Assembly: GCF_050320075.1 (NCBI RefSeq)
Contig: NZ_CP190024.1
From: Escherichia coli
GTDB taxonomy: Bacteria > Pseudomonadota > Gammaproteobacteria > Enterobacterales > Enterobacteriaceae
Reading direction: 5' to 3' (one strand)
DNA length: 6,747 nucleotides
The notes below the pieces were generated by a model that was not told the origin of the DNA, did no database searches, and was given only the letters and a program-made list of their open reading frames with translations. Positions within the stretch are counted from its first letter, which is position 1. Each line of letters starts with the position of its first letter. Of this stretch, positions 1-6,747 are shown one piece after another. The translations under genes and the position numbers were made by a program.

Positions 1-927
1 ATGAGCGCCGCGCTTCAATACTTCGACGAAAATTTACCCCACCGTCCCTATCACACGGATGATCTCGCTTTTGGTCTTCGCATCTCCGGCAAAGGGCGTG
101 CGCTTCTTGCGCGGTACATCCAGCAGAACCAGCCTCATGCGCAGTTCTGGCTGGTTTTTGATGTTGACCGCGAGGGGGCAGCGATTGACTGGAGTGACCG
201 GAACGCTCCCGCGCCGAACATCACCGTAAAAAATCCTGTGAACGGTCATGCTCACCTGCTCTACGCGCTCAATATCGCCGTGAGAACCGCGCCGGACAGC
301 TCGGTTAAGGCGCTGAAATACGCCGCTGCGATTGAACGTTCGCTGTGTGAGAAACTTTGTGCTGATGTGAACTACAGCGGACTGATTTGTAAAAATCCGT
401 TCCACCTGGAATGGCAGGTGATGGAGTGGCGAGAGGAAGCCTATACCCTCGGTGAACTGGCTGATTATCTCGATTTGAGTGCCTCAGCGCGCCGTAGCAT
501 CGATAAACGTTACGGGATGGGGCGAAACTGCCACCTGTTCGAAATGACGCGCAAATGGGCTTACAGGGCGATTCGTCAGGGCTGGCCAGCATTCTCACAG
601 TGGCTTGATGCCGTGATTCAGCGTGTCGAAATGTACAACGCATCGCTTCCCGTTCCGCTTTCTCCGGCTGAATGTCGGGCTATTGGCAAGAGCATTGCGA
701 AATACACGCACAGGAACTTCACGCCGGAAACTTTCGCACAGTATGTGGCTGATACGCACACGCCAGAAATTCAGGCTGCACGTGGTCGCAAGGGCGGGAA
801 AATTGGAGGTGCTAAGTCTAAGCGTGGTGCTGTTGCCACATCTGCGCGAACGTTGAAACCGTGGGAGACTCTTGGAATTAGCCGCGCCTGGTATTACCAA
901 CTGAAAAAACGAGGTCTTGTAGAGTAG
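1..927 (+). CDS. rep: ColE2-family plasmid replication initiator Rep (plasmid-specific primase)
   Basis: 308-aa ORF from ATG at 1 to TAG at 925-927. The protein closely resembles, from memory, the Rep proteins of ColE2/ColE3-type plasmids (about 300 aa with a basic C-terminal DNA-binding tail, here ...GRKGGKIGGAKSKRGAVATSARTLKPWETLGISRAWYYQLKKRG). A ColE2-like origin motif follows the stop codon directly. Putative RBS GGAG at 6730-6733 if the molecule is circular. Confidence 0.88.
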   Translation: MSAALQYFDENLPHRPYHTDDLAFGLRISGKGRALLARYIQQNQPHAQFWLVFDVDREGAAIDWSDRNAPAPNITVKNPVNGHAHLLYALNIAVRTAPDSSVKALKYAAAIERSLCEKLCADVNYSGLICKNPFHLEWQVMEWREEAYTLGELADYLDLSASARRSIDKRYGMGRNCHLFEMTRKWAYRAIRQGWPAFSQWLDAVIQRVEMYNASLPVPLSPAECRAIGKSIAKYTHRNFTPETFAQYVADTHTPEIQAARGRKGGKIGGAKSKRGAVATSARTLKPWETLGISRAWYYQLKKRGLVE

Positions 928-975
928 ACCAAATAAAACCTATATCAGATAACAGCGCTTTTTTGAGCTGTTGGC
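928..975. promoter_or_regulatory. ColE2-type replication origin (Rep binding and primer synthesis site)
   Basis: Directly after the rep stop: AAATAAAACCTATATCAGATAACAGCGCTTTTTTGAGCTGTTGGCG. The core TATCAGATAACAGCGC (943-958) matches my recollection of the conserved ColE2-P9 minimal ori, which lies immediately 3' of rep in that family. Short inverted repeat ACAGC..GCTGT at 952-970. Exact boundaries are approximate. Confidence 0.6.
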
Positions 976-1035
976 GTTTGGTGGCTTTTTCGTTTCCTCC
1001 CTGCAATGGTGCGGCTTTCCGCGTGATTGAGGTTG

Positions 1036-1098
1036 TAGCGCTCGCCGCAGTCTCATGTCCGAGCGTAGCGAGCGAATGAGCGAGGAAGCGCAAAGGCG
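1036..1098. other. ColE1/pMB1-backbone-like segment, candidate single-strand initiation (primosome assembly) site
   Basis: GCGCTCGCCGCAGTCTCATGTCCGAGCGTAGCGAGCGAATGAGCGAGGAAGCGCAAAGGCG is roughly 80% identical by eye to the pMB1/pUC segment CCGCTCGCCGCAGCCGAACGACCGAGCGCAGCGAGTCAGTGAGCGAGGAAGCGGAAGAGCG, which sits just downstream of the ColE1-type origin. Functional call is inference from position (about 60-120 bp downstream of the ColE2 ori). Confidence 0.35.
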
Positions 1099-1132
1099 TC
1101 CGGTGGTGTATGTGGCTCTTACGCGCCGGGGC

Positions 1133-1408
1133 TTAGTGGTTCTGCGGTTTCGCCGGTGGTCTGGGTAGCTTCTCCAGCTCGTTAATCAGCGGTTGTAGTC
1201 GGTTCATATCGGCCTGTCTTGTGACTTCCTTTCGCAGAAACTGGAGCAGGAACGCACGCAGTTGCGCTTCTTCCGGCCTCCGTACCCTCGCCAGCATGGC
1301 AGCCCCCACAATGACTTTTTGCGCCGTGTCCAGGCTCCGGCTCTTCGCCTTCAGGCGCTGTAATCTGGCCTCAGCTTCGGCAATCTTCTGTTCGAGTGTT
1401 CTGCTCAT
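1133..1408 (-). CDS. mobC: MobC-family mobilisation accessory protein (relaxosome component)
   Basis: 91-aa ORF on the minus strand, divergent from the relaxase gene with the putative oriT in between (RSF1010-like arrangement). Charged coiled-coil N-terminus followed by KVIVGAAMLARV, resembling the MobC family. GGAG RBS about 8 nt upstream of the ATG (complement of 1406-1408); stop is the complement of 1133-1135. Confidence 0.72.
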   Translation of the reverse strand: MSRTLEQKIAEAEARLQRLKAKSRSLDTAQKVIVGAAMLARVRRPEEAQLRAFLLQFLRKEVTRQADMNRLQPLINELEKLPRPPAKPQNH

Positions 1409-1494
1409 TTCGTGACTCCGTGCGCGGTGAAAAATCGTATTTTAGCGCGTCACTGGTAGTTGCAAAACTGAACTGGCATAATGCACGGCACATC

Positions 1495-1550
1495 ACGAAG
1501 TGCGCACTTATACAATCTTCACTTCGTTTCGATTGTGTGCGCCCTGCGGG
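1495..1550. promoter_or_regulatory. Candidate oriT (nic region) and divergent mobC/mobA promoter region
   Basis: Intergenic region between divergent mobC and mobA. Inverted repeat CGAAGTG (1495-1501) / CACTTCG (1520-1526), including the perfect 12-bp palindrome AAGTGCGCACTT (1497-1508), followed by GTGTGCGCCCTGCGGGG (1535-1551). This resembles the RSF1010 nic region as I recall it (GGTAAGTGCG^CCCTCCCC), which would put the nick near 1541/1542. Confidence 0.5.
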
Positions 1551-1586
1551 GCTGAAAGAAAACGGCAAAAAGGCATTACGGAAGAA

Positions 1587-3806
1587 ATGGCGATTTATCA
1601 TCTCAGCATGAAAATCATTTCGCGAAAAAACGGCTACAGTGCCGTTGCTTCTGCTGCCTACCGTTCCGGCTCTGTCATACCCGATGACCGTACCGGATTA
1701 ATCCACGATTACACCCGTAAACGCGGCGTTGATGATGCGGTCATTCTCACCCCTGCGAATGCACCGTCCTGGTGTGGTGACCGTTCCGTTCTCTGGAATG
1801 CGGTCGAGAAAGCCGAACAGCGCCGGAACTCCCAGCTGGCAAGGGAGATTGAACTCGCCATTCCCCGTGAGATTTCCCGCGAGGCCGCACGGGAGGCCGT
1901 TCTCGCTTTTGTCCGGGAAAACTTTGTCAGTCGGGGCATGATTGCCGATGTGGCGTTCCATCATATGGACCGGACCAACCCCCATGCACACATCATGCTG
2001 ACCACGAGAGCTGTCGGGGAAACGGGATTCGCAGGAAAGGTCAGGGACTGGAACGACCGGGCACTCGCCGAGACGTGGCGCGCATCATGGGCTGACCATG
2101 CGAACAGAGCGCTTGCGAACGCCGGCTACCAGGAAGAGATAGACCATCGTTCATACGAGCGTCAGGGACTGGAGAAAGCGCCGGGCCTTCACCTCGGAAA
2201 GGCTGCCTGTGCGATGGAAAAACGGGGCATGGAAACAGAACGCGGTGAGCAGAACCGCCTGATTAACAGCCTTAACCTGGAAATACAGGTTTCCCGCACA
2301 AGGCTGGCAGTCATCCAGGTACAGGAGAACGTGCGGAAACGGGAACTCAGCGATGCCGCACGTCGTGCAGCGGAAGCCCTTAATCTGACCATTCCCGCCG
2401 CGAATGCCTCAGCGGATACCCTGCGGGAATTCATTGCCACACTGCCGCAGGAATGCGGGAACGCATGGGAGATGACACCGGAGTTCGTGGCGATGAACGG
2501 GAAGGCAAACGACATCAAACGTGAGGGGAATGCGCTGGTGAAAGAGCGGGATATTCTCGAAAAAGAGATGACCGGACTCAGAAAATCCCGTCCGGTAGCG
2601 TCCATCCTGTCAGAGCTTCCCCTGATGACATGGGCTGAACCGGAATACCGCAAAAGACAACTCCGCTTCTGGAAACTCGAGAAACAGATTGAATCTCTTC
2701 TCCGCACCTACAGGGCCGTGAAAGAACGGGACATTCCCGCCCGTCGTCAGGCCTTTGAAACGCAGTGGAATACGTGGATTTCGCCGGGAATGGCAGAGCT
2801 GAAAGAAAAACTGTCAGCACGGGAAGCGGAGCGGCGCAGGGAGGAAGCCGAAGCGGAAGCGCGCCGGAAGGAACAGGAATATGACGCACGGCTGAAACAC
2901 CATGATAACCATCGCCTGAGCCGTGAAACGGCATTAGCCGGGGTTATTACGGAGCTGGGGCGTGCCAGAGAGCCGGGAACGGGCAGGATAACCCGCTACA
3001 TGATGCTGAGTAACAGAGCCGGAGAATTCACGGTATGGGGTGATGAGCTGGCGCATTACCCCCAGAGTGTTCATGACCCGGTGAATGTTTACCTGTCGCC
3101 AGGCGGGGCTGTGATGGTCTCGGATATACGTGAGAGAATGCCAGAATCTCATGAGACGATGGCGCGGCCTGAGCGTGTGAGAATGTATTCCGGTGCGACG
3201 GTCCGGCATGTACTGGAACAGATGCGCCAGGGGTGGCCCTCTTACGGTTTTCCGGCGCTGCCGCATCACTGGCCGGATAATTTTTATTTCAGCGACGACC
3301 GCAGGCCCGCAGCCTCTCCGCTGCCGTCAGCGCACCGGGTGGACGTCACCGCTTATGCGGCACCGGAGCAACTCATGCCCGTTGTCTTTTCGACAGAGCG
3401 AAACAGCAGGACGCTGAATCTGCTGTTGTGCGAAGGGCCGGAGGAAATGCTTGTCGGTTTTGTGCGCCTGGAGGACGAGCTGCGTCCCGTTCTTGCGCTT
3501 CCGTCGCCGGATTACAGTCATCTGATGGTAAGCATCATCACAGAGAACGGGATACACCTGGCAGGTTACGGTGAGGCCATAAACCGTGATGCTGATACTC
3601 CGTACCCACCGGAACCGAAGCTGATGCAGTTCAGGCTTAAGGGCTGTCAGGACACGCTTTTTGCTGCCATCAACAAACCGGAAGAGATGCCGGATTATCT
3701 CTTCCGTCAACTCGGATTTAATCAGACCTGGCATGAGTGGAAGCGGGAGGAACAGCGCAGGCAACAACAACGCCGTCCCGGGCACTTCCGGGGCATGAGT
3801 ATGTGA
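1587..3806 (+). CDS. mobA: MobA/MobL-family (MobQ) conjugative relaxase with a long C-terminal extension
   Basis: The ORF track starts at a GTG at 1500, but the in-frame ATG at 1587 gives the N-terminus MAIYHLSMKIISRKNGYSAVASAAYRSGS, typical of MobA relaxases (RSF1010 MobA starts MAIYHL) and placing the catalytic Tyr near the N-terminus. Histidine triad HHMDRTNPHAHIML. Stop TGA at 3804-3806. Residues from about 250 to 740 include a charged coiled-coil stretch and a C-terminal region I cannot assign to a domain by eye. Confidence 0.9.
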   Translation: MAIYHLSMKIISRKNGYSAVASAAYRSGSVIPDDRTGLIHDYTRKRGVDDAVILTPANAPSWCGDRSVLWNAVEKAEQRRNSQLAREIELAIPREISREAAREAVLAFVRENFVSRGMIADVAFHHMDRTNPHAHIMLTTRAVGETGFAGKVRDWNDRALAETWRASWADHANRALANAGYQEEIDHRSYERQGLEKAPGLHLGKAACAMEKRGMETERGEQNRLINSLNLEIQVSRTRLAVIQVQENVRKRELSDAARRAAEALNLTIPAANASADTLREFIATLPQECGNAWEMTPEFVAMNGKANDIKREGNALVKERDILEKEMTGLRKSRPVASILSELPLMTWAEPEYRKRQLRFWKLEKQIESLLRTYRAVKERDIPARRQAFETQWNTWISPGMAELKEKLSAREAERRREEAEAEARRKEQEYDARLKHHDNHRLSRETALAGVITELGRAREPGTGRITRYMMLSNRAGEFTVWGDELAHYPQSVHDPVNVYLSPGGAVMVSDIRERMPESHETMARPERVRMYSGATVRHVLEQMRQGWPSYGFPALPHHWPDNFYFSDDRRPAASPLPSAHRVDVTAYAAPEQLMPVVFSTERNSRTLNLLLCEGPEEMLVGFVRLEDELRPVLALPSPDYSHLMVSIITENGIHLAGYGEAINRDADTPYPPEPKLMQFRLKGCQDTLFAAINKPEEMPDYLFRQLGFNQTWHEWKREEQRRQQQRRPGHFRGMSM

Positions 3807-3844
3807 TGTCCGGGGCTGCACTCCGGACCCCGCCAACACATCAC

Positions 3845-3868
3845 GGGCCACAAAATTTTTTGTGGCCC
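3845..3868. terminator. Palindromic hairpin downstream of mobA (possible terminator/insulator before the colicin promoter)
   Basis: GGGCCACAAAATTTTTTGTGGCCC is a near-perfect palindrome with 11-bp arms, 39 bp after the mobA stop and upstream of the colicin promoter. No clean U-tract follows on the plus strand, so terminator function is uncertain. Confidence 0.4.
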
Positions 3869-3925
3869 GCTCTGCGTTTTCTAAGTGTTATCCCTCCTGA
3901 CTTCTAAAAAATTTTCCACCTGAAC

Positions 3926-3954
3926 TTGACAGAAAAAACGATGACGGGTACTTT
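3926..3954 (+). promoter_or_regulatory. Colicin operon sigma70 promoter (-35 TTGACA, -10 approximately TACTTT)
   Basis: Consensus -35 TTGACA at 3926-3931. After a 17-bp spacer a candidate -10 TACTTT at 3949-3954. An A/T-rich tract lies upstream (3905-3920) and the LexA operators immediately downstream, as in E-group colicin promoters. Confidence 0.65.
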
Positions 3955-3959
3955 TTGAT

Positions 3960-3990
3960 CTGTACATAAAACCAGTGGTTTTATGTACAG
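3960..3990 (+). promoter_or_regulatory. Tandem overlapping LexA (SOS) operators
   Basis: CTGTACATAAAACCAG (3960-3975) fits the LexA box consensus CTGT-N8-ACAG, and an overlapping second box ends in ATGTACAG (3983-3990). The whole element CTGTACATAAAACCAGTGGTTTTATGTACAG is the classic dual SOS box of colicin promoters. Confidence 0.85.
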
Positions 3991-4037
3991 TATTAATCAT
4001 GTAATTAATTGTTTTAACGCTTAAAAGAGGGACTTTT

Positions 4038-5786
4038 ATGAGCGGTGGAGATGGACGCGGCCATAACACGGGCGCGCATAGCACAAGTGGTAACATTAAT
4101 GGTGGCCCGACCGGGATTGGTGTAAGTGGTGGTGCTTCTGATGGTTCAGGATGGAGTTCGGAAAATAACCCGTGGGGTGGTGGTTCCGGTAGCGGCATTC
4201 ACTGGGGAGGTGGCTCCGGTCGTGGTAATGGCGGGGGTAATGGCAATTCCGGTGGTGGCTCGGGAACAGGCGGTAATTTGTCAGCAGTAGCTGCGCCAGT
4301 GGCATTTGGTTTTCCGGCGCTTTCCACTCCAGGAGCTGGCGGTCTGGCTGTCAGTATTTCTGCAAGCGAATTATCGGCAGCTATTGCTGGTATTATTGCT
4401 AAATTAAAAAAAGTAAATCTTAAATTCACTCCTTTTGGGGTTGTCTTATCTTCATTAATTCCGTCGGAAATAGCGAAAGATGACCCCAATATGATGTCAA
4501 AGATTGTGACGTCATTACCCGCAGATGATATTACTGAATCACCTGTCAGTTCATTACCTCTCGATAAGGCAACAGTAAACGTAAATGTTCGTGTTGTTGA
4601 TGATGTAAAAGACGAACGACAGAATATTTCGGTTGTTTCAGGTGTTCCGATGAGTGTTCCGGTGGTTGATGCAAAACCTACCGAACGTCCAGGTGTTTTT
4701 ACGGCATCAATTCCAGGTGCACCTGTTCTGAATATTTCAGTTAATAACAGTACGCCAGCAGTACAGACATTAAGCCCAGGTGTTACAAATAATACTGATA
4801 AGGATGTTCGCCCGGCAGGATTTACTCAGGGTGGTAATACCAGGGATGCAGTTATTCGATTCCCGAAGGACAGCGGTCATAATGCCGTATATGTTTCAGT
4901 GAGTGATGTTCTTAGTCCTGACCAGGTAAAACAACGTCAGGATGAAGAAAATCGCCGTCAGCAGGAATGGGATGCTACGCATCCGGTTGAAGCGGCTGAG
5001 CGAAATTATGAACGCGCGCGTGCAGAGCTGAATCAGGCAAATGAAGATGTTGCCAGAAATCAGGAGCGACAGGCTAAAGCTGTTCAGGTTTATAATTCGC
5101 GTAAAAGCGAACTTGATGCAGCGAATAAAACTCTTGCTGATGCAATAGCTGAAATAAAACAATTTAATCGATTTGCCCATGACCCAATGGCTGGCGGTCA
5201 CAGAATGTGGCAAATGGCCGGGCTTAAAGCTCAGCGGGCGCAGACGGATGTAAATAATAAGCAGGCTGCATTTGATGCTGCTGCAAAAGAGAAGTCAGAT
5301 GCTGATGCTGCATTAAGTGCCGCGCAGGAGCGCCGCAAACAGAAGGAAAATAAAGAAAAGGACGCTAAGGATAAATTAGATAAGGAGAGTAAACGGAATA
5401 AGCCAGGGAAGGCGACAGGTAAAGGTAAACCAGTTGGTGATAAATGGCTGGATGATGCAGGTAAAGATTCAGGAGCGCCAATTCCAGATCGCATTGCTGA
5501 TAAGTTGCGTGATAAAGAATTTAAAAACTTCGACGATTTTCGGAGAAAATTCTGGGAAGAAGTGTCGAAAGATCCTGAGTTAAGTAAGCAATTTAATCCA
5601 GGTAATAAAAAACGCTTGAGCCAAGGATTAGCTCCACGGGCTAGGAATAAAGATACTGTCGGTGGGCGTCGCTCATTTGAGCTTCATCACGACAAGCCAA
5701 TCAGTCAGGATGGTGGTGTTTATGATATGGACAACCTCCGTATCACTACGCCGAAACGCCATATTGATATTCACAGAGGTCAGTAA
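4038..5786 (+). CDS. col: E-group DNase colicin (BtuB/Tol-dependent, HNH nuclease C-terminus), most consistent with colicin E8-type
   Basis: 582-aa ORF with RBS GAGGG at 4026-4030. Glycine-rich N-terminal translocation domain containing the TolB box DGSGW (residues 35-39). Central coiled-coil region of the kind that forms the receptor-binding domain. C-terminal HNH/beta-beta-alpha-Me motif [34 protein letters not shown], diagnostic of the DNase colicins E2/E7/E8/E9. Subtype inferred from the adjacent immunity gene. Confidence 0.93.
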
Positions 5787-5788
5787 AA

Positions 5789-6046
5789 ATGGAACTGAAA
5801 AACAGCATTAGTGATTACACTGAAACTGAATTCAAAAAAATTATTGAAGACATCATCAATTGTGAAGGTGATGAAAAAAAACAGGATGATAACCTCGAGC
5901 ATTTTATAAGTGTTACTGAGCATCCTAGTGGTTCTGATCTGATTTATTACCCAGAAGGTAATAATGATGGTAGCCCTGAAGCTGTTATTAAAGAGATTAA
6001 AGAATGGCGAGCTGCTAACGGTAAGTCAGGATTTAAACAGGGCTGA
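5789..6046 (+). CDS. imm: DNase-colicin immunity protein (Im family), Im8-like
   Basis: 85-aa ORF starting 2 nt after the colicin stop, with RBS AGAGG inside the colicin 3' end. Conserved Im-family blocks [12 protein letters not shown]...[13 protein letters not shown]...[17 protein letters not shown]. The variable specificity region ([32 protein letters not shown]) matches my recollection of Im8 rather than Im2, Im7 or Im9. Confidence 0.93.
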
Positions 6047-6051
6047 AATAT

Positions 6052-6090
6052 GAATGCCAGTTGTTTAAGGATGAATGACTGGCATTCTTT
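6052..6090 (+). terminator. Hairpin between imm and lysis gene (partial read-through terminator)
   Basis: Perfect 10-bp inverted repeat GAATGCCAGT (6052-6061) / ACTGGCATTC (6078-6087) with a 16-nt loop, followed by TTT. It sits between imm and the lysis gene, where E-colicin operons have an attenuating terminator. Confidence 0.5.
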
Positions 6091-6107
6091 CACAACAAGG
6101 AGTCGTT

Positions 6108-6251
6108 ATGAAAAAAATAACAGGGATTATTTTATTGCTTCTTGCAGTCATTATTCTGGCTGCATGTCAGGCAAACTATATCCGGGATGTTCAGGGCGGG
6201 ACCGTATCTCCGTCATCAACAGCTGAAGTGACCGGATTAGCAACGCAGTAA
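6108..6251 (+). CDS. Colicin release / lysis lipoprotein (bacteriocin release protein)
   Basis: 47-aa ORF absent from the ORF track because of its length. [47 protein letters not shown] has a signal peptide and lipobox (LAAC, lipidated Cys at position 20), typical of colicin lysis proteins. Strong RBS AAGGAG at 6097-6102; last gene of the col-imm-lys operon. Confidence 0.9.
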
Positions 6252-6278
6252 CCCGAAATCCTCTTTGACAAAAACAAA

Positions 6279-6311
6279 GCGTGTCAGGCTGATTCTGATG
6301 CGCTTTTTTTT
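6279..6311 (+). terminator. Rho-independent terminator of the colicin operon
   Basis: Stem GCGTGTCAG (6279-6287) / CTGATGCGC (6295-6303) with a 7-nt loop and two G-U pairs, followed by T8 (6304-6311), just after the lysis gene stop. Confidence 0.75.
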
Positions 6312-6439
6312 GAAATGTCACAAAAGTTCCATGTGGGAGATGGGATCTAAAATCCCTGTGCAGAACCTTCCATCCGGTGGGAGAAAACTTGTCATTTTGA
6401 CCTGTTCGCCATTCGGAACGGTCGAAACCGATCGCGTAT

Positions 6440-6590
6440 CGCTTTCGTGCATAGTTATGCAGCGCCCTAAAAACGATTCTGACGCATTTTTCTGGTTCAG
6501 CCTGGTGTTTCCTTGTCTTTTTGCGTTTTTTGCGTCAGAACGCGTCTGAGAGCGTTTTAAGGGGTACGTACAACAGGAATTATGGTAAAT
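6440..6590. other. cer-like Xer (XerC/XerD) multimer-resolution site with upstream accessory sequences
   Basis: Core at 6563-6590: GGTACGTACAA-CAGGAA-TTATGGTAAAT. The XerD arm is identical, and the XerC arm has one mismatch, to ColE1 cer (GGTGCGTACAA-TTAAGGGA-TTATGGTAAAT) as I recall it. About 110 bp upstream is a palindrome with ARG-box geometry, TGCATAGTTATGCA (6449-6462), plus 9-bp inverted repeats TCTGACGCA (6478-6486) / TGCGTCAGA (6531-6539). Confidence 0.65.
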
Positions 6591-6644
6591 GGATCGGGTT
6601 TGCGGGAAGGATCGACAGGATTTGCCGTTGGGTGTAGTGTAAGC

Positions 6645-6745
6645 GACTGAAAAACAAACGCCCCTGAAATCATGTCCAGATCCGGCAAGATTCAACATGA
6701 AATACAGAGGGCGTGTAGGTCGCATAACCCGGAGAGAATCGTAAC
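6645..6745 (-). ncRNA. Candidate antisense copy-control RNA (RNAI-like) complementary to the rep mRNA leader
   Basis: In ColE2-type plasmids an approximately 115-nt antisense RNA complementary to the rep 5' UTR controls Rep translation. On the minus strand, if the molecule is circular, a promoter-like pair spans the junction: TTGAAG (complement of 13-18), 16-bp spacer, TACGAT (complement of 6738-6743). Downstream, imperfect stem arms (complement of 6705-6713 and 6659-6666) are followed by a T-rich tract, GTTTGTTTTTC. Ends are approximate. Confidence 0.35.
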
Positions 6746-6747
6746 AC

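Follow-up and report, generated by a model that had tools for sequence, protein, structure and literature searches.

Composition and plasmid comparisons point to a colicin E8 operon carried as accessory cargo in a conserved slot of a ColE2-like plasmid

The DNA analysed here (the window, 6747 bp) is a whole circular plasmid of the ColE2-like (MOBQ4-2), colicin E8 type, in which replication and mobilization genes of high GC content are followed by an AT-rich colicin operon. An earlier note on this DNA read the contrast as the trace of a toxin-immunity cassette acquired as a module, which raises the question of where such a module would begin and end and what its composition says about its history. 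Four circular plasmids show 100% identity to the window across 6747 bp; the identity to the window is 100% for pACN001-D and 97.5% for pColE8. The plasmid is of the colicin E8/Im8 specificity type, its immunity protein being that of the reference pColE8, i.e. the product has the same accession (WP_000421100.1) in a window-identical record and in pColE8 (NC_012882.1). The operon is 99–100% identical to that of pColE8 except at positions 5251–5400, and this patch, rep 751–1200 and the rep control region (6665–150) are the main differences between the two plasmids.

The gene identifications of the earlier note hold in Pfam searches. The rep gene (1–927, + strand) encodes a 308-aa ColE2-type replication initiator with the Replicase (PF03090; 7.9e-44) and PriCT_1 (PF08708) domains, annotated as a replication initiation protein in an identical record. 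A probable ColE2-type origin, AGACCAAATAAAACCTATATCAGATAACAGCGC, was recognized by sequence reading at 927–959 (+ strand), just past the rep stop codon, and may resemble the ori sequence of ColE2-P9. The ColE2 ori has been described as 32 bp downstream of rep (PMC6856555). On the − strand, a 91-aa ORF (1133–1408) is a mobC-like relaxase accessory gene, recognized as a homologue at the DNA level only (83% identity to a region of pMB6206_4 annotated as mobC), with no Pfam or NCBIfam match in profile searches; mobC is known to run divergently from mobA (PMC6856555). The mobA gene (1587–3806, + strand) encodes a MOBQ-family relaxase, matching Pfam MobA_MobL (2.2e-70) and NCBIfam MobQ (NF041496) at 261 bits, above the cutoff of 200 bits, and is annotated as mobQ. 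Upstream of rep, the control region at 6665–6747 (+ strand), in which RNAI and the rep leader have a role (PMC6856555), forms a mosaic patch of its own and is highly variable: in alignments with nine relatives, L002 among them, mismatches are concentrated from position 6665 on in every case (9/9).

By Pfam, the genes of a group A nuclease colicin operon lie in the order colicin, immunity, lysis on the + strand (4038–6251). Sequence reading and an inverted-repeat search placed the colicin promoter region at 3926–3990 (+ strand), with a −35-like TTGACA at 3926–3931 and a perfect palindrome at 3960–3990 (15-nt arms, 100% complementary, CTGT...ACAG), which, as is established for colicin operons, are presumably overlapping LexA/SOS boxes. 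The colicin gene (4038–5786) encodes a 582-aa protein with a C-terminal DNase domain (Pfam Cloacin, Pyocin_S, E2R135 and Col-Pyo_DNase) and is followed by the immunity gene Im8 (5789–6046; Colicin_Pyocin, 2.6e-30) and the gene for the colicin release lysis lipoprotein (lys, 6108–6251; Lysis_col, 1.1e-20, in agreement with the annotation). A rho-independent terminator-like hairpin with a T-run (6276–6311, + strand; 13 pairs, then TTTTT), identified in a terminator scan, marks the operon end.

The AT-richness of the colicin receptor and DNase regions, imm and lys relative to rep, mobC and mobA, which the earlier note had judged by eye, is borne out by calculation. The GC content is 56.0% in 1–3870, 43.8% in 3871–6260 (also 43.8% in 3900–6260) and 46.6% in 6261–6747. 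GC3 is 0.566 in rep (54.3% GC overall), 0.652 in the mobC-like ORF and 0.622 in mobA (57.2% GC), i.e. ~0.6, whereas it is 0.326 in the colicin gene, 0.375 in lys and 0.267 in Im8, the gene of lowest GC content here (35.7%), i.e. ~0.3. GC1 and GC2 are nearly equal in the rep/mob set (0.629 and 0.452) and the colicin-operon set (0.577 and 0.446), and the GC3 gap is 0.29. Since the contrast is confined to GC3, with GC1 and GC2 barely shifted, amino acid composition was ruled out as its cause. Synonymous codon usage is heterogeneous between the two gene sets (chi2 194.8, df 41, p 7e-22), and their RSCU correlation is 0.13. When the circle was partitioned by maximum likelihood with two breakpoints, a low-GC arc emerged at 3850–6708 (44.1% GC versus 56.1% elsewhere), with a log-likelihood gain of 47.2, compared with a maximum of 12.6 in 100 shuffles. 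GC content and codon usage are thus not uniform across the window. That the heterogeneity is a chance fluctuation or an effect of amino acid composition only can practically be dismissed on these figures, although a glycine-rich N-terminal part of the colicin (~4041–4350) illustrates that amino acid content can move local GC: it forms a GC-rich island (59%) arising from a GC2 of 0.74, with GC3 still low (0.39), and was rightly left out of the AT-rich regions in the earlier note.

The left compositional break is sharp and lies at ~3850, and the right break is diffuse (6591–6708). In dynamic-programming segmentation, the first break was always 3851, and the BIC-best solution contained breaks at 3851, 4041, 4351 and 6591. 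No compositional step was found at 6260–6320, where the right boundary had been proposed; the low-GC arc continues through non-coding DNA and the cer-like site to 6591–6708. Non-coding stretches of the window have 41–46% GC. Their raw GC was rejected as a sign of foreign origin because E. coli intergenic DNA is just as AT-rich (42.2% in the K-12 sample). Non-coding GC is normal for E. coli, and the true anomaly is confined to GC3 of the coding parts: it is 0.32 in the operon and 0.61 in the backbone, compared with a range of 0.42–0.62 in the K-12 reference, a single 50-kb sample of 31 genes. Classic rare codons are not enriched in the cassette (39 per 1000, versus 50 per 1000 in the backbone). 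Low GC3 is general to colicin-type operons, whichever plasmid carries them. The genes of E5 and E7-like operons have GC3 values of 0.37/0.25/0.33 and 0.36/0.26/0.38, respectively, a pore-former has 0.31, and in CloDF13, with a ColE1-type replicon, the values are 0.44 for cloacin, 0.31 for imm and 0.48 for lys, versus 0.72–0.75 for the mob genes. No explicit GC3 analysis of ColE2-like plasmids was found in the literature searched.

Comparison of module boundaries across related plasmids indicates that the operon acts as a separable unit. The same rep/mob backbone occurs without the colicin operon in at least 22 plasmids of ~4.2–4.7 kb: a query spanning the junction was covered to 80% or more by 22 records from E. 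coli, Salmonella and Shigella, and in 20 of these the identity was ≥99%. In these plasmids (e.g. NZ_CP032885.1 and NZ_CP075858.1), rep, mobC, mobA, the hairpin described below and cer are as in the window and the mob region is 97–100% identical, whereas 3883 to ~6377 is wholly missing. Two of them, L002 (4714 bp) and L018 (4234 bp), match the window from 1 or 955 to 3882 and then from 6381 onward, with 3882 joined directly to ~6378–6381. The operon is thus polymorphic for presence and absence, with fixed edges, in otherwise homologous replicons. All MOBQ4-2 plasmids were reported to carry colicin operons (PMC6856555), and plasmids with this backbone and no colicin are unexpected from that work.

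These comparisons delimit a cargo module at 3883–6377 (+ strand), i.e. the colicin E8 operon including promoter and terminator, with an overall GC content of 43.8%, atypical in composition relative to both its flanks and the K-12 host sample. The left joint (3882/3883) falls within the interval of 3870–3920 that had been proposed. The right joint (~6375–6381, approximately 6377/6378) lies at the start of the cer accessory region, ~60–120 bp beyond the proposed 6260–6320, a span occupied by the operon terminator. On the left, the slot is flanked by a hairpin after mobA (3835–3878, 21-nt arms), found as an inverted repeat. In an alignment of seven plasmids, 3833–3882 is common to both backbone types, and the differences in the hairpin arms, judged by eye, fit retention of the stem.

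The second backbone type is that of Col156-type plasmids (pGABEEC10_4, pRHB01-C09_3 and pMNCRE44_3), which share with the window a ColE2-type rep (91–99% identity over ~1–800), the hairpin, the cargo slot and cer, but have a 308-aa MobA/MobL relaxase, an unrelated mob module and a lower backbone GC content (52%). The Col156/MobA-L plasmids L006, L010 and L012 carry E7-like, E5 and pore-forming colicin operons and are homologous to the window from 3833. Their operons, with the same AT-rich GC3 as that of the window, thus place the same operon type beside an unrelated mob module. L013, a colicin-less Col156 relative, differs from L010 exactly between the equivalents of window positions 3881 and 6378, where it contains 1578 bp (36.8% GC). 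The slot of these plasmids thus holds an E5, E7-like or pore-forming colicin operon, or else AT-rich DNA (1.6 kb) without a long ORF.

The right flank of the slot (6378–6562, + strand), where homology with all plasmids begins irrespective of colicin carriage, is presumed to be a cer accessory region from its position upstream of the core. The cer-like Xer core, GGTACGTACAA-CAGGAA-TTATGGTAAAT, was located by pattern search at 6563–6590 (+ strand), and its sequence is conserved in all ColE2-type relatives examined; a cer-like site has been described in MOBQ4-2 plasmids (PMC6856555). A search with the strict cer pattern of ColE1 (8-bp spacer) gave no match; under a relaxed pattern, the site shows a 6-bp central region. 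The core pattern (GGTACGTACAA-N6-TTATGGTAAAT) occurs once in the window and in one or two copies in 15 of the 16 related plasmids searched, with no match in the Rep_3-type plasmid L014. No second Xer site was found in the window: the next-best matches have at least 7 mismatches in 22 positions, equal to the shuffle level, and none is near 3883. An Xer-flanked (cer/dif) module was therefore rejected, the window having a single core and none at the left edge of the operon, and Xer recombination alone cannot have exchanged the operon. The suggestion that the cer-like site is a hotspot of exchange stands in part: the core is present and one relative breaks exactly at its end, but it lies ~300 bp from the boundary that had been proposed. 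A search of 3800–6450 revealed no terminal direct or inverted repeats linking the operon ends, junction comparison revealed no target-site duplication, and the ORF list contains no integrase or transposase; the module shows neither mobility machinery of its own nor flanking repeats. Transposition or an IS-borne cassette was rejected for lack of terminal repeats and target duplication around 3883 and 6377.

The two blocks seen in the earlier note reflect a real contrast, but identity profiles of relatives reveal much finer mosaicism, and the patterns are incompatible between modules. L002 is 99–100% identical to the window in mob and 69–88% in rep 1–600, L005 is 100% identical over 5251–6300 and 83–91% over 3301–3750, and L011 is 99–100% identical over 1501–5250 and 39–65% over 5401–6150.

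Taken together, sequence composition and comparison make it quite likely that the plasmid consists of separately descended modules, namely rep/ori, mobC-oriT-mobA, the colicin operon and the cer site, each with its own history. The colicin operon (3883 to ~6377) would be accessory cargo in a slot extending from the post-mobA hairpin to the point where the cer accessory region begins. The AT-richness of the operon is a signature at synonymous sites (GC3 ~0.3, versus ~0.6 in rep/mob) that is constant for colicin-type operons. Homologous recombination between co-resident related plasmids may exchange the cargo, with the hairpin (3833–3882) on the left, lys and cer (~6050–6590) on the right and conserved stretches within the operon as candidate substrates; Xer/cer, by forming and resolving heterodimers, may bring partners together. 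A dedicated cargo-exchange locus from the hairpin at 3833–3882 to ~6378, serving two unrelated mob backbones, is a far less probable reading. On that reading, the role of the hairpin and of the cer accessory region would go beyond passive homology, e.g. to that of entry points in an exchange assisted by a relaxase or by Xer, with a relationship to the mini-module between cer-like cores in NZ_CP075858.1.

The composition and the comparisons are consistent with several directions of change, i.e. gain of the operon, loss of the operon or a swap of the mob module. The proposed acquisition of a toxin-immunity cassette is therefore sound as to the separability of the module, but gain is one of several histories, and composition cannot polarize the event because the GC-rich mob module has itself been swapped (PMC6856555). 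It is possible, though doubtful, that the incoming piece was this mob module (mobC-oriT-mobA of MOBQ4, ~1090–3832), gained by recombination by an older unit of ColE2 rep, cer and colicin. The mob region is unrelated to that of the window in L006, L010 and L012. Homology of L006 to the window is unbroken from 3833 to 800, across the operon, cer and rep; that of L010 and L012 is limited to the flanks of the block (3833–5030 or 3833–4062, the cer region and rep), owing to their different toxin-immunity parts. The same mob module, at 83% identity, is found on a Rep_3 replicon (PMC6856555), the GC3 values of mobA and mobC (0.62–0.65) equal or exceed the upper limit of the K-12 sample, and the mob of L002 is nearly that of the window while its rep and cer differ. 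This history would nevertheless leave the contrast between rep and the operon unexplained, since rep, part of the older unit, is also GC-rich, and the same rep and mob are found together in plasmids without colicin. It is compatible with the preferred reading of the operon as exchangeable cargo, and both modules may have moved.

The colicin-less plasmids could also be deletion derivatives rather than pre-acquisition forms, which counts against the preferred reading. The slot edges would then be deletion end-points and the pattern silent on acquisition. No feature polarizes the event, costly lethal operons are readily lost from small plasmids, and the functional elements at the slot edge, i.e. 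the terminator hairpin and cer, could not be lost in a viable deletion. We regard this as somewhat unlikely, since both edges are found again in a second backbone and with different cargos, and junction comparison revealed no microhomology. In the colicin-less plasmids, the hairpin region (3751–3900) is 74% and the cer flank 89–91% identical to the window, i.e. the flanks are 9–26% diverged beside the nearly identical mob, and these plasmids are thus not simple recent deletions of the window plasmid. Less probable still is that the AT-rich synonymous composition is no foreign footprint but is kept by function, whether through selection for tight silencing by H-NS or similar nucleoid proteins, through selection to keep translation of this lethal, SOS-induced operon slow or restricted, or through relaxed codon selection in genes that are seldom expressed. 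Bacteriocin operon and mob genes differ in GC3 by ~0.28 in both the window plasmid and CloDF13, although the absolute values differ (both partners are higher in CloDF13), this offset persists in four toxin classes, and the non-cassette cargo of L013 is likewise AT-rich. A bias maintained by expression selection or silencing fits the CloDF13 offset as well as separate ancestry does, which again counts against the preferred reading. Yet rep and mob, also weakly expressed plasmid genes, are GC-rich, classic rare codons are no commoner in the cassette than in the backbone, and the presence/absence polymorphism, which exists regardless, stays unexplained.

Beyond careful annotation, these results matter little: they confirm that small colicin plasmids contain exchangeable modules for replication, mobilization, toxin production and resolution, and they place the edges of the cargo slot within a few bases (3882/3883 and ~6377/6378). 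The new points are modest, i.e. colicin-less plasmids with a MOBQ4-2 backbone are now common in databases, a second backbone uses the same slot, and colicin operons show a constant GC3 offset in whatever plasmid they are carried, which prompts the question whether history or maintenance accounts for it.

Among known systems, pdif modules of Acinetobacter plasmids are Xer-dependent modules flanked by dif/cer sites. They can be likened to a 401-bp segment of L002 that lies between two direct cer-like cores and bears an ORF of 91 aa, for which profile searches found no family, whereas a single Xer core lies near the operon of the window. In ColE1-like bacteriocin plasmids such as CloDF13, AT content is higher in the bacteriocin operon than in mob, as in the window, but these plasmids use another replicon (RNA II/RNA I) and a relaxase of another family, and homology to the window is limited to short promoter and lysis-gene stretches. 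The same ColE1-like backbones occur with and without bacteriocin operons, and oriT and cer have been cited as recombination points (PMC8683028). MOBQ4 plasmids combine a common mob module with two unrelated replicons, of which the ColE2 group has a colicin operon and a cer-like site (PMC6856555). The modular architecture of small colicin plasmids is already published, and our result is ordinary in that respect. The ColE2-like/MOBQ4-2 colicin plasmids ColE9-J (NC_011977), pColE8, ColE2-P9 and ColE3-CA38 have the same order of rep-ori, mobC, oriT, mobA, colicin, imm, lys and cer-like site (PMC6856555 and Hiraga et al. 1994 cited therein) and are 95–100% identical to the window along most of its length, and the window plasmid does not differ from them in kind.

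The 6747-base sequence is a complete circular plasmid that matches four database plasmids at 100%, each exactly 6747 bp in length and including pACN001-D (NC_023325.1), and matches the reference pColE8 at 97.5%. Because the plasmid is circular, with position 6747 joined to position 1, all boundaries are read on the circle. The gene map proposed in the earlier note was borne out by Pfam. The backbone contains rep (1-927), encoding a ColE2-type Rep with Replicase and PriCT_1 domains, and mobA (1587-3806), encoding a MobA/MobL relaxase that NCBIfam assigns above cutoff to MobQ. The cassette comprises the genes for a 582-aa colicin with a DNase C-terminal domain (4038-5786), the colicin immunity protein (5789-6046; accession identical to that of Im8 of pColE8), and the lysis lipoprotein (6108-6251). 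The minus-strand ORF at 1133-1408 (91 aa) gave no match in profile searches against Pfam and NCBIfam; at the DNA level, it shares 83% identity with a stretch annotated as mobC in a related plasmid.

The contrast between an AT-rich cassette and a GC-rich backbone, previously judged by eye, is real and strong in terms of GC content, GC3, synonymous codons, and segmentation. The GC contents of regions 1-3870, 3871-6260, and 6261-6747 are 56.0, 43.8, and 46.6%, respectively. The signal sits at third codon positions: GC3 is 0.566, 0.652, and 0.622 in rep, the mobC-like ORF, and mobA, respectively, versus 0.326, 0.267, and 0.375 in the colicin, imm, and lys genes. Amino-acid content was rejected as the cause because the two gene sets hardly differ in GC1 and GC2. 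Synonymous-codon usage differs between cassette and backbone (chi-square 194.8, df 41, p 7e-22), with RSCU values correlating at only 0.13 across the gene sets. Relative to a sample of 31 ordinary K-12 genes (pooled GC3 0.527, range 0.42-0.62), the cassette (0.32) lies far outside the range and the backbone (0.61) at its upper edge. The glycine-rich N-terminal 100 codons of the colicin form a GC island (58% GC, GC2 0.74), the GC3 of which is still 0.39. Non-coding pieces contain 41-46% GC, which is normal for E. coli intergenic DNA (42.2% in the sample), and the anomaly is confined to coding GC3. The best two-breakpoint partition of the circle delimits a low-GC arc at 3850-6708, with a log-likelihood gain of 47.2 (at most 12.6 in 100 shuffles). 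A break at 3851 is present in every multi-segment dynamic-programming solution, and the BIC-best segmentation places breaks at 3851, 4041, 4351, and 6591.

Colicin-type operons show the low-GC3 signature on every vehicle examined. GC3 is 0.25-0.38 in the E5, E7-like, and pore-forming operons carried by Col156 backbones, and 0.31-0.48 in the cloacin operon of CloDF13, a ColE1-type replicon, versus 0.72-0.75 in its mob genes. The offset in CloDF13 is thus similar although both partners are shifted upward, and this leaves room for an AT bias that is kept in place, e.g. by silencing or expression control. Our literature search found no paper stating the GC3 contrast explicitly, but the contrast is an unsurprising corollary.

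The edges of the cassette were defined by comparison with colicin-less plasmids. In total, 72,556 plasmids were searched with cassette and backbone queries; at least 80% of the cassette was found in 87 records and at least 80% of the backbone in 76, with many further records containing only partial cassette or backbone content. NZ_CP075858.1 (L002, 4714 bp) and NZ_CP032885.1 (L018, 4234 bp) carry rep and mob as in the window without the colicin operon, and their homology to the window extends up to 3882 and starts again from 6381. In base-level alignments, the empty junction joins GCGTTTTCT (3882) to GGTGGGAGAAAAC (about 6376-6378). A query spanning this junction detected 22 records at ≥80% coverage, of which 20 were ≥99% identical, in E. 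coli, Salmonella, and Shigella hosts, and the empty-slot configuration is therefore a lineage, not an artefact.

Plasmids of the Col156 type provide a second backbone, with a rep homologous to that of the window (91-99% over about 1-800), a 308-aa MobA/MobL relaxase, and a mob region unrelated to that of the window. Homology restarts at 3833, 27 bp past the mobA stop codon. L006, with an E7-like DNase operon, remains homologous across the operon, cer, and rep. In L010, which has an E5 operon, and L012, which has a pore-former operon, the homology is limited to the conserved operon front (3833-5030 and 3833-4062, respectively), the cer region, and rep. A colicin-less relative of the Col156 type, pMNCRE44_3 (NZ_CP010879.1), departs from them exactly between the equivalents of window positions 3881 and 6378. 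Since the colicin-less comparisons in both backbones agree, the edges of the cargo slot are identical in the two. The slot of pMNCRE44_3 (3301-4878; 1578 bp, 36.8% GC) contains no ORF of >69 aa lying within it, longer ORFs at its right end extending into the cer flank; this DNA may be either degenerate cargo or a non-coding element.

The left slot edge is the end of a hairpin located 3' of the mob genes (3835-3878), and the right edge is the start of a stretch of ~185 bp upstream of the cer-like core. Joints had been predicted at 3870-3920 and 6260-6320. The former was correctly placed, at 3882/3883, a few tens of bases downstream of the compositional break at ~3850. The latter interval contains the operon terminator (a stem of 13 pairs at 6276-6306, then a T-run) and no joint, the presence/absence edge lying 60-120 bp further on, at ~6377; nor does the profile show a compositional step there, the low-GC arc running on to 6591-6708. 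The hairpin differs in sequence between lineages (3835-3878 versus 774-806 in L002). Its stem, judged by eye, is apparently retained through changes in both arms, which would suggest that the structure is under selection, as a terminator or in another role. In 8.1-kb relatives, there is a further breakpoint at 6416, after which comes a second operon, partial and of the E3 type, which in L008 (NZ_CP075630.1, 6426-7288) consists of an E3 cytotoxic-domain fragment, E3 imm, a DNase-type imm, and lys. The point of insertion is 36-40 bp into the cer accessory region, and beyond the insert the lys-cer stretch occurs a second time.

The window contains no match to the strict ColE1 cer pattern. A cer-like core, GGTACGTACAA-CAGGAA-TTATGGTAAAT, with a 6-bp central region, does exist downstream of the operon, as had been claimed (6563-6590), and was found in every ColE2-type relative examined; such a site has been noted for this plasmid group, with Hiraga et al. 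1994 cited (PMC6856555). In L002, homology to the window breaks off precisely at the final base of the XerD arm, which is direct evidence for the capacity of the site to serve as a crossover point. There, two direct cer-like cores (1000-1027 and 1429-1456) surround a 401-bp segment encoding a 91-aa ORF (1039-1314, GC3 0.67; no match in a family search), and the segment looks like a small module captured by Xer recombination. The colicin operon itself, however, has only one Xer core: the next-best candidates in the window have at least seven mismatches, equal to the shuffled level, and none is near 3883. Given the single core and the absence of direct or inverted repeats pairing the operon ends and of a target duplication, the operon was rejected both as an Xer-flanked module and as a transposon.

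Sliding-window identity between the window and nine relatives indicates module histories that appear to fit no single tree. L002 is 99-100% identical in mob and 69-88% in rep (1-600). pUC4224_2 is 100% identical in the DNase-imm-lys part (5251-6300), 83-91% at 3301-3750, and 73% at 4351-4500. In pF95-5, identity is 99-100% between 1501 and 5250, 39-65% at 5401-6150, and 58-87% in rep; in ColE9-J, it falls from 99-100% before position 5400 to 59-75% across the specificity region. From 6665, the rep control region differs from all nine aligned relatives. The rep leader/control region (6665-6747) and two patches inside rep (1-150 and 751-1050) share only 57-94% identity with plasmids that are otherwise 99-100% identical, and they represent a separate mosaic, presumably tied to incompatibility and origin specificity. 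Within the colicin gene, a 150-bp patch (4351-4500) is 73% identical to E2-type plasmids and 100% to pColE8, ColE9-J, and pF95-5, and another (5251-5400) is 81% identical to pColE8 and 100% to ColE9-J; these patches are either short recombination tracts within the gene or mistakes in old reference sequences. The GC-rich mob block, found also on a Rep_3 replicon (83% identity), is itself a travelling module, and its presence on that second replicon is the central point of PMC6856555. An internal rep fragment (118-761; 644 bp) occurs unannotated, at 95-98% identity, in many large plasmids (60-190 kb) of E. coli and Klebsiella and may have been left behind when a ColE2-type plasmid formed a cointegrate. 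The promoter/SOS-operator region (3925-4015, 3875-4062) has 85-86% matches to unannotated DNA in many large plasmids; because it also matches DNA upstream of pore-forming colicin genes, the promoter is a sub-module common to different colicin classes.

The plasmid is most likely a patchwork of independently exchanged modules, in which the colicin operon is cargo in a conserved slot and keeps its low-GC3 signature. Homologous recombination between co-resident relatives would be the simplest account of the exchange, with the conserved hairpin, lys, cer, and conserved segments within the colicin gene as probable substrates, and any role of cer would be indirect, through the formation and resolution of heterodimers. 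The earlier note read the contrast as acquisition of the cassette. Presence/absence and the shared slot edges support the modularity in this reading, but its direction was overclaimed: composition by itself does not discriminate between gain of the operon by the backbone, its loss from the empty plasmids, and a swap of the mob block beneath a rep-cer-colicin unit. The note's interpretation is supported in part: it was right that the plasmid is modular, right about the left joint and that a cer site exists, and wrong about the right joint.

Overall, this is already known biology. Only two facts are mildly new: the many colicin-less members of a group earlier said always to carry the colicin operon, and the delimitation of the cargo slot at base resolution. 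Recombination is a familiar driver of toxin-immunity diversity in colicins. The same driver is described for polymorphic toxins (PMC3482391), and the replication, mobilisation, colicin operon, and cer-like modules of ColE2-like/MOBQ4-2 plasmids have been published (PMC6856555). The modular picture is the same in ColE1-like plasmids, the backbones of which occur with or without bacteriocin cargo and for which recombination at oriT and cer has been described (PMC8683028).
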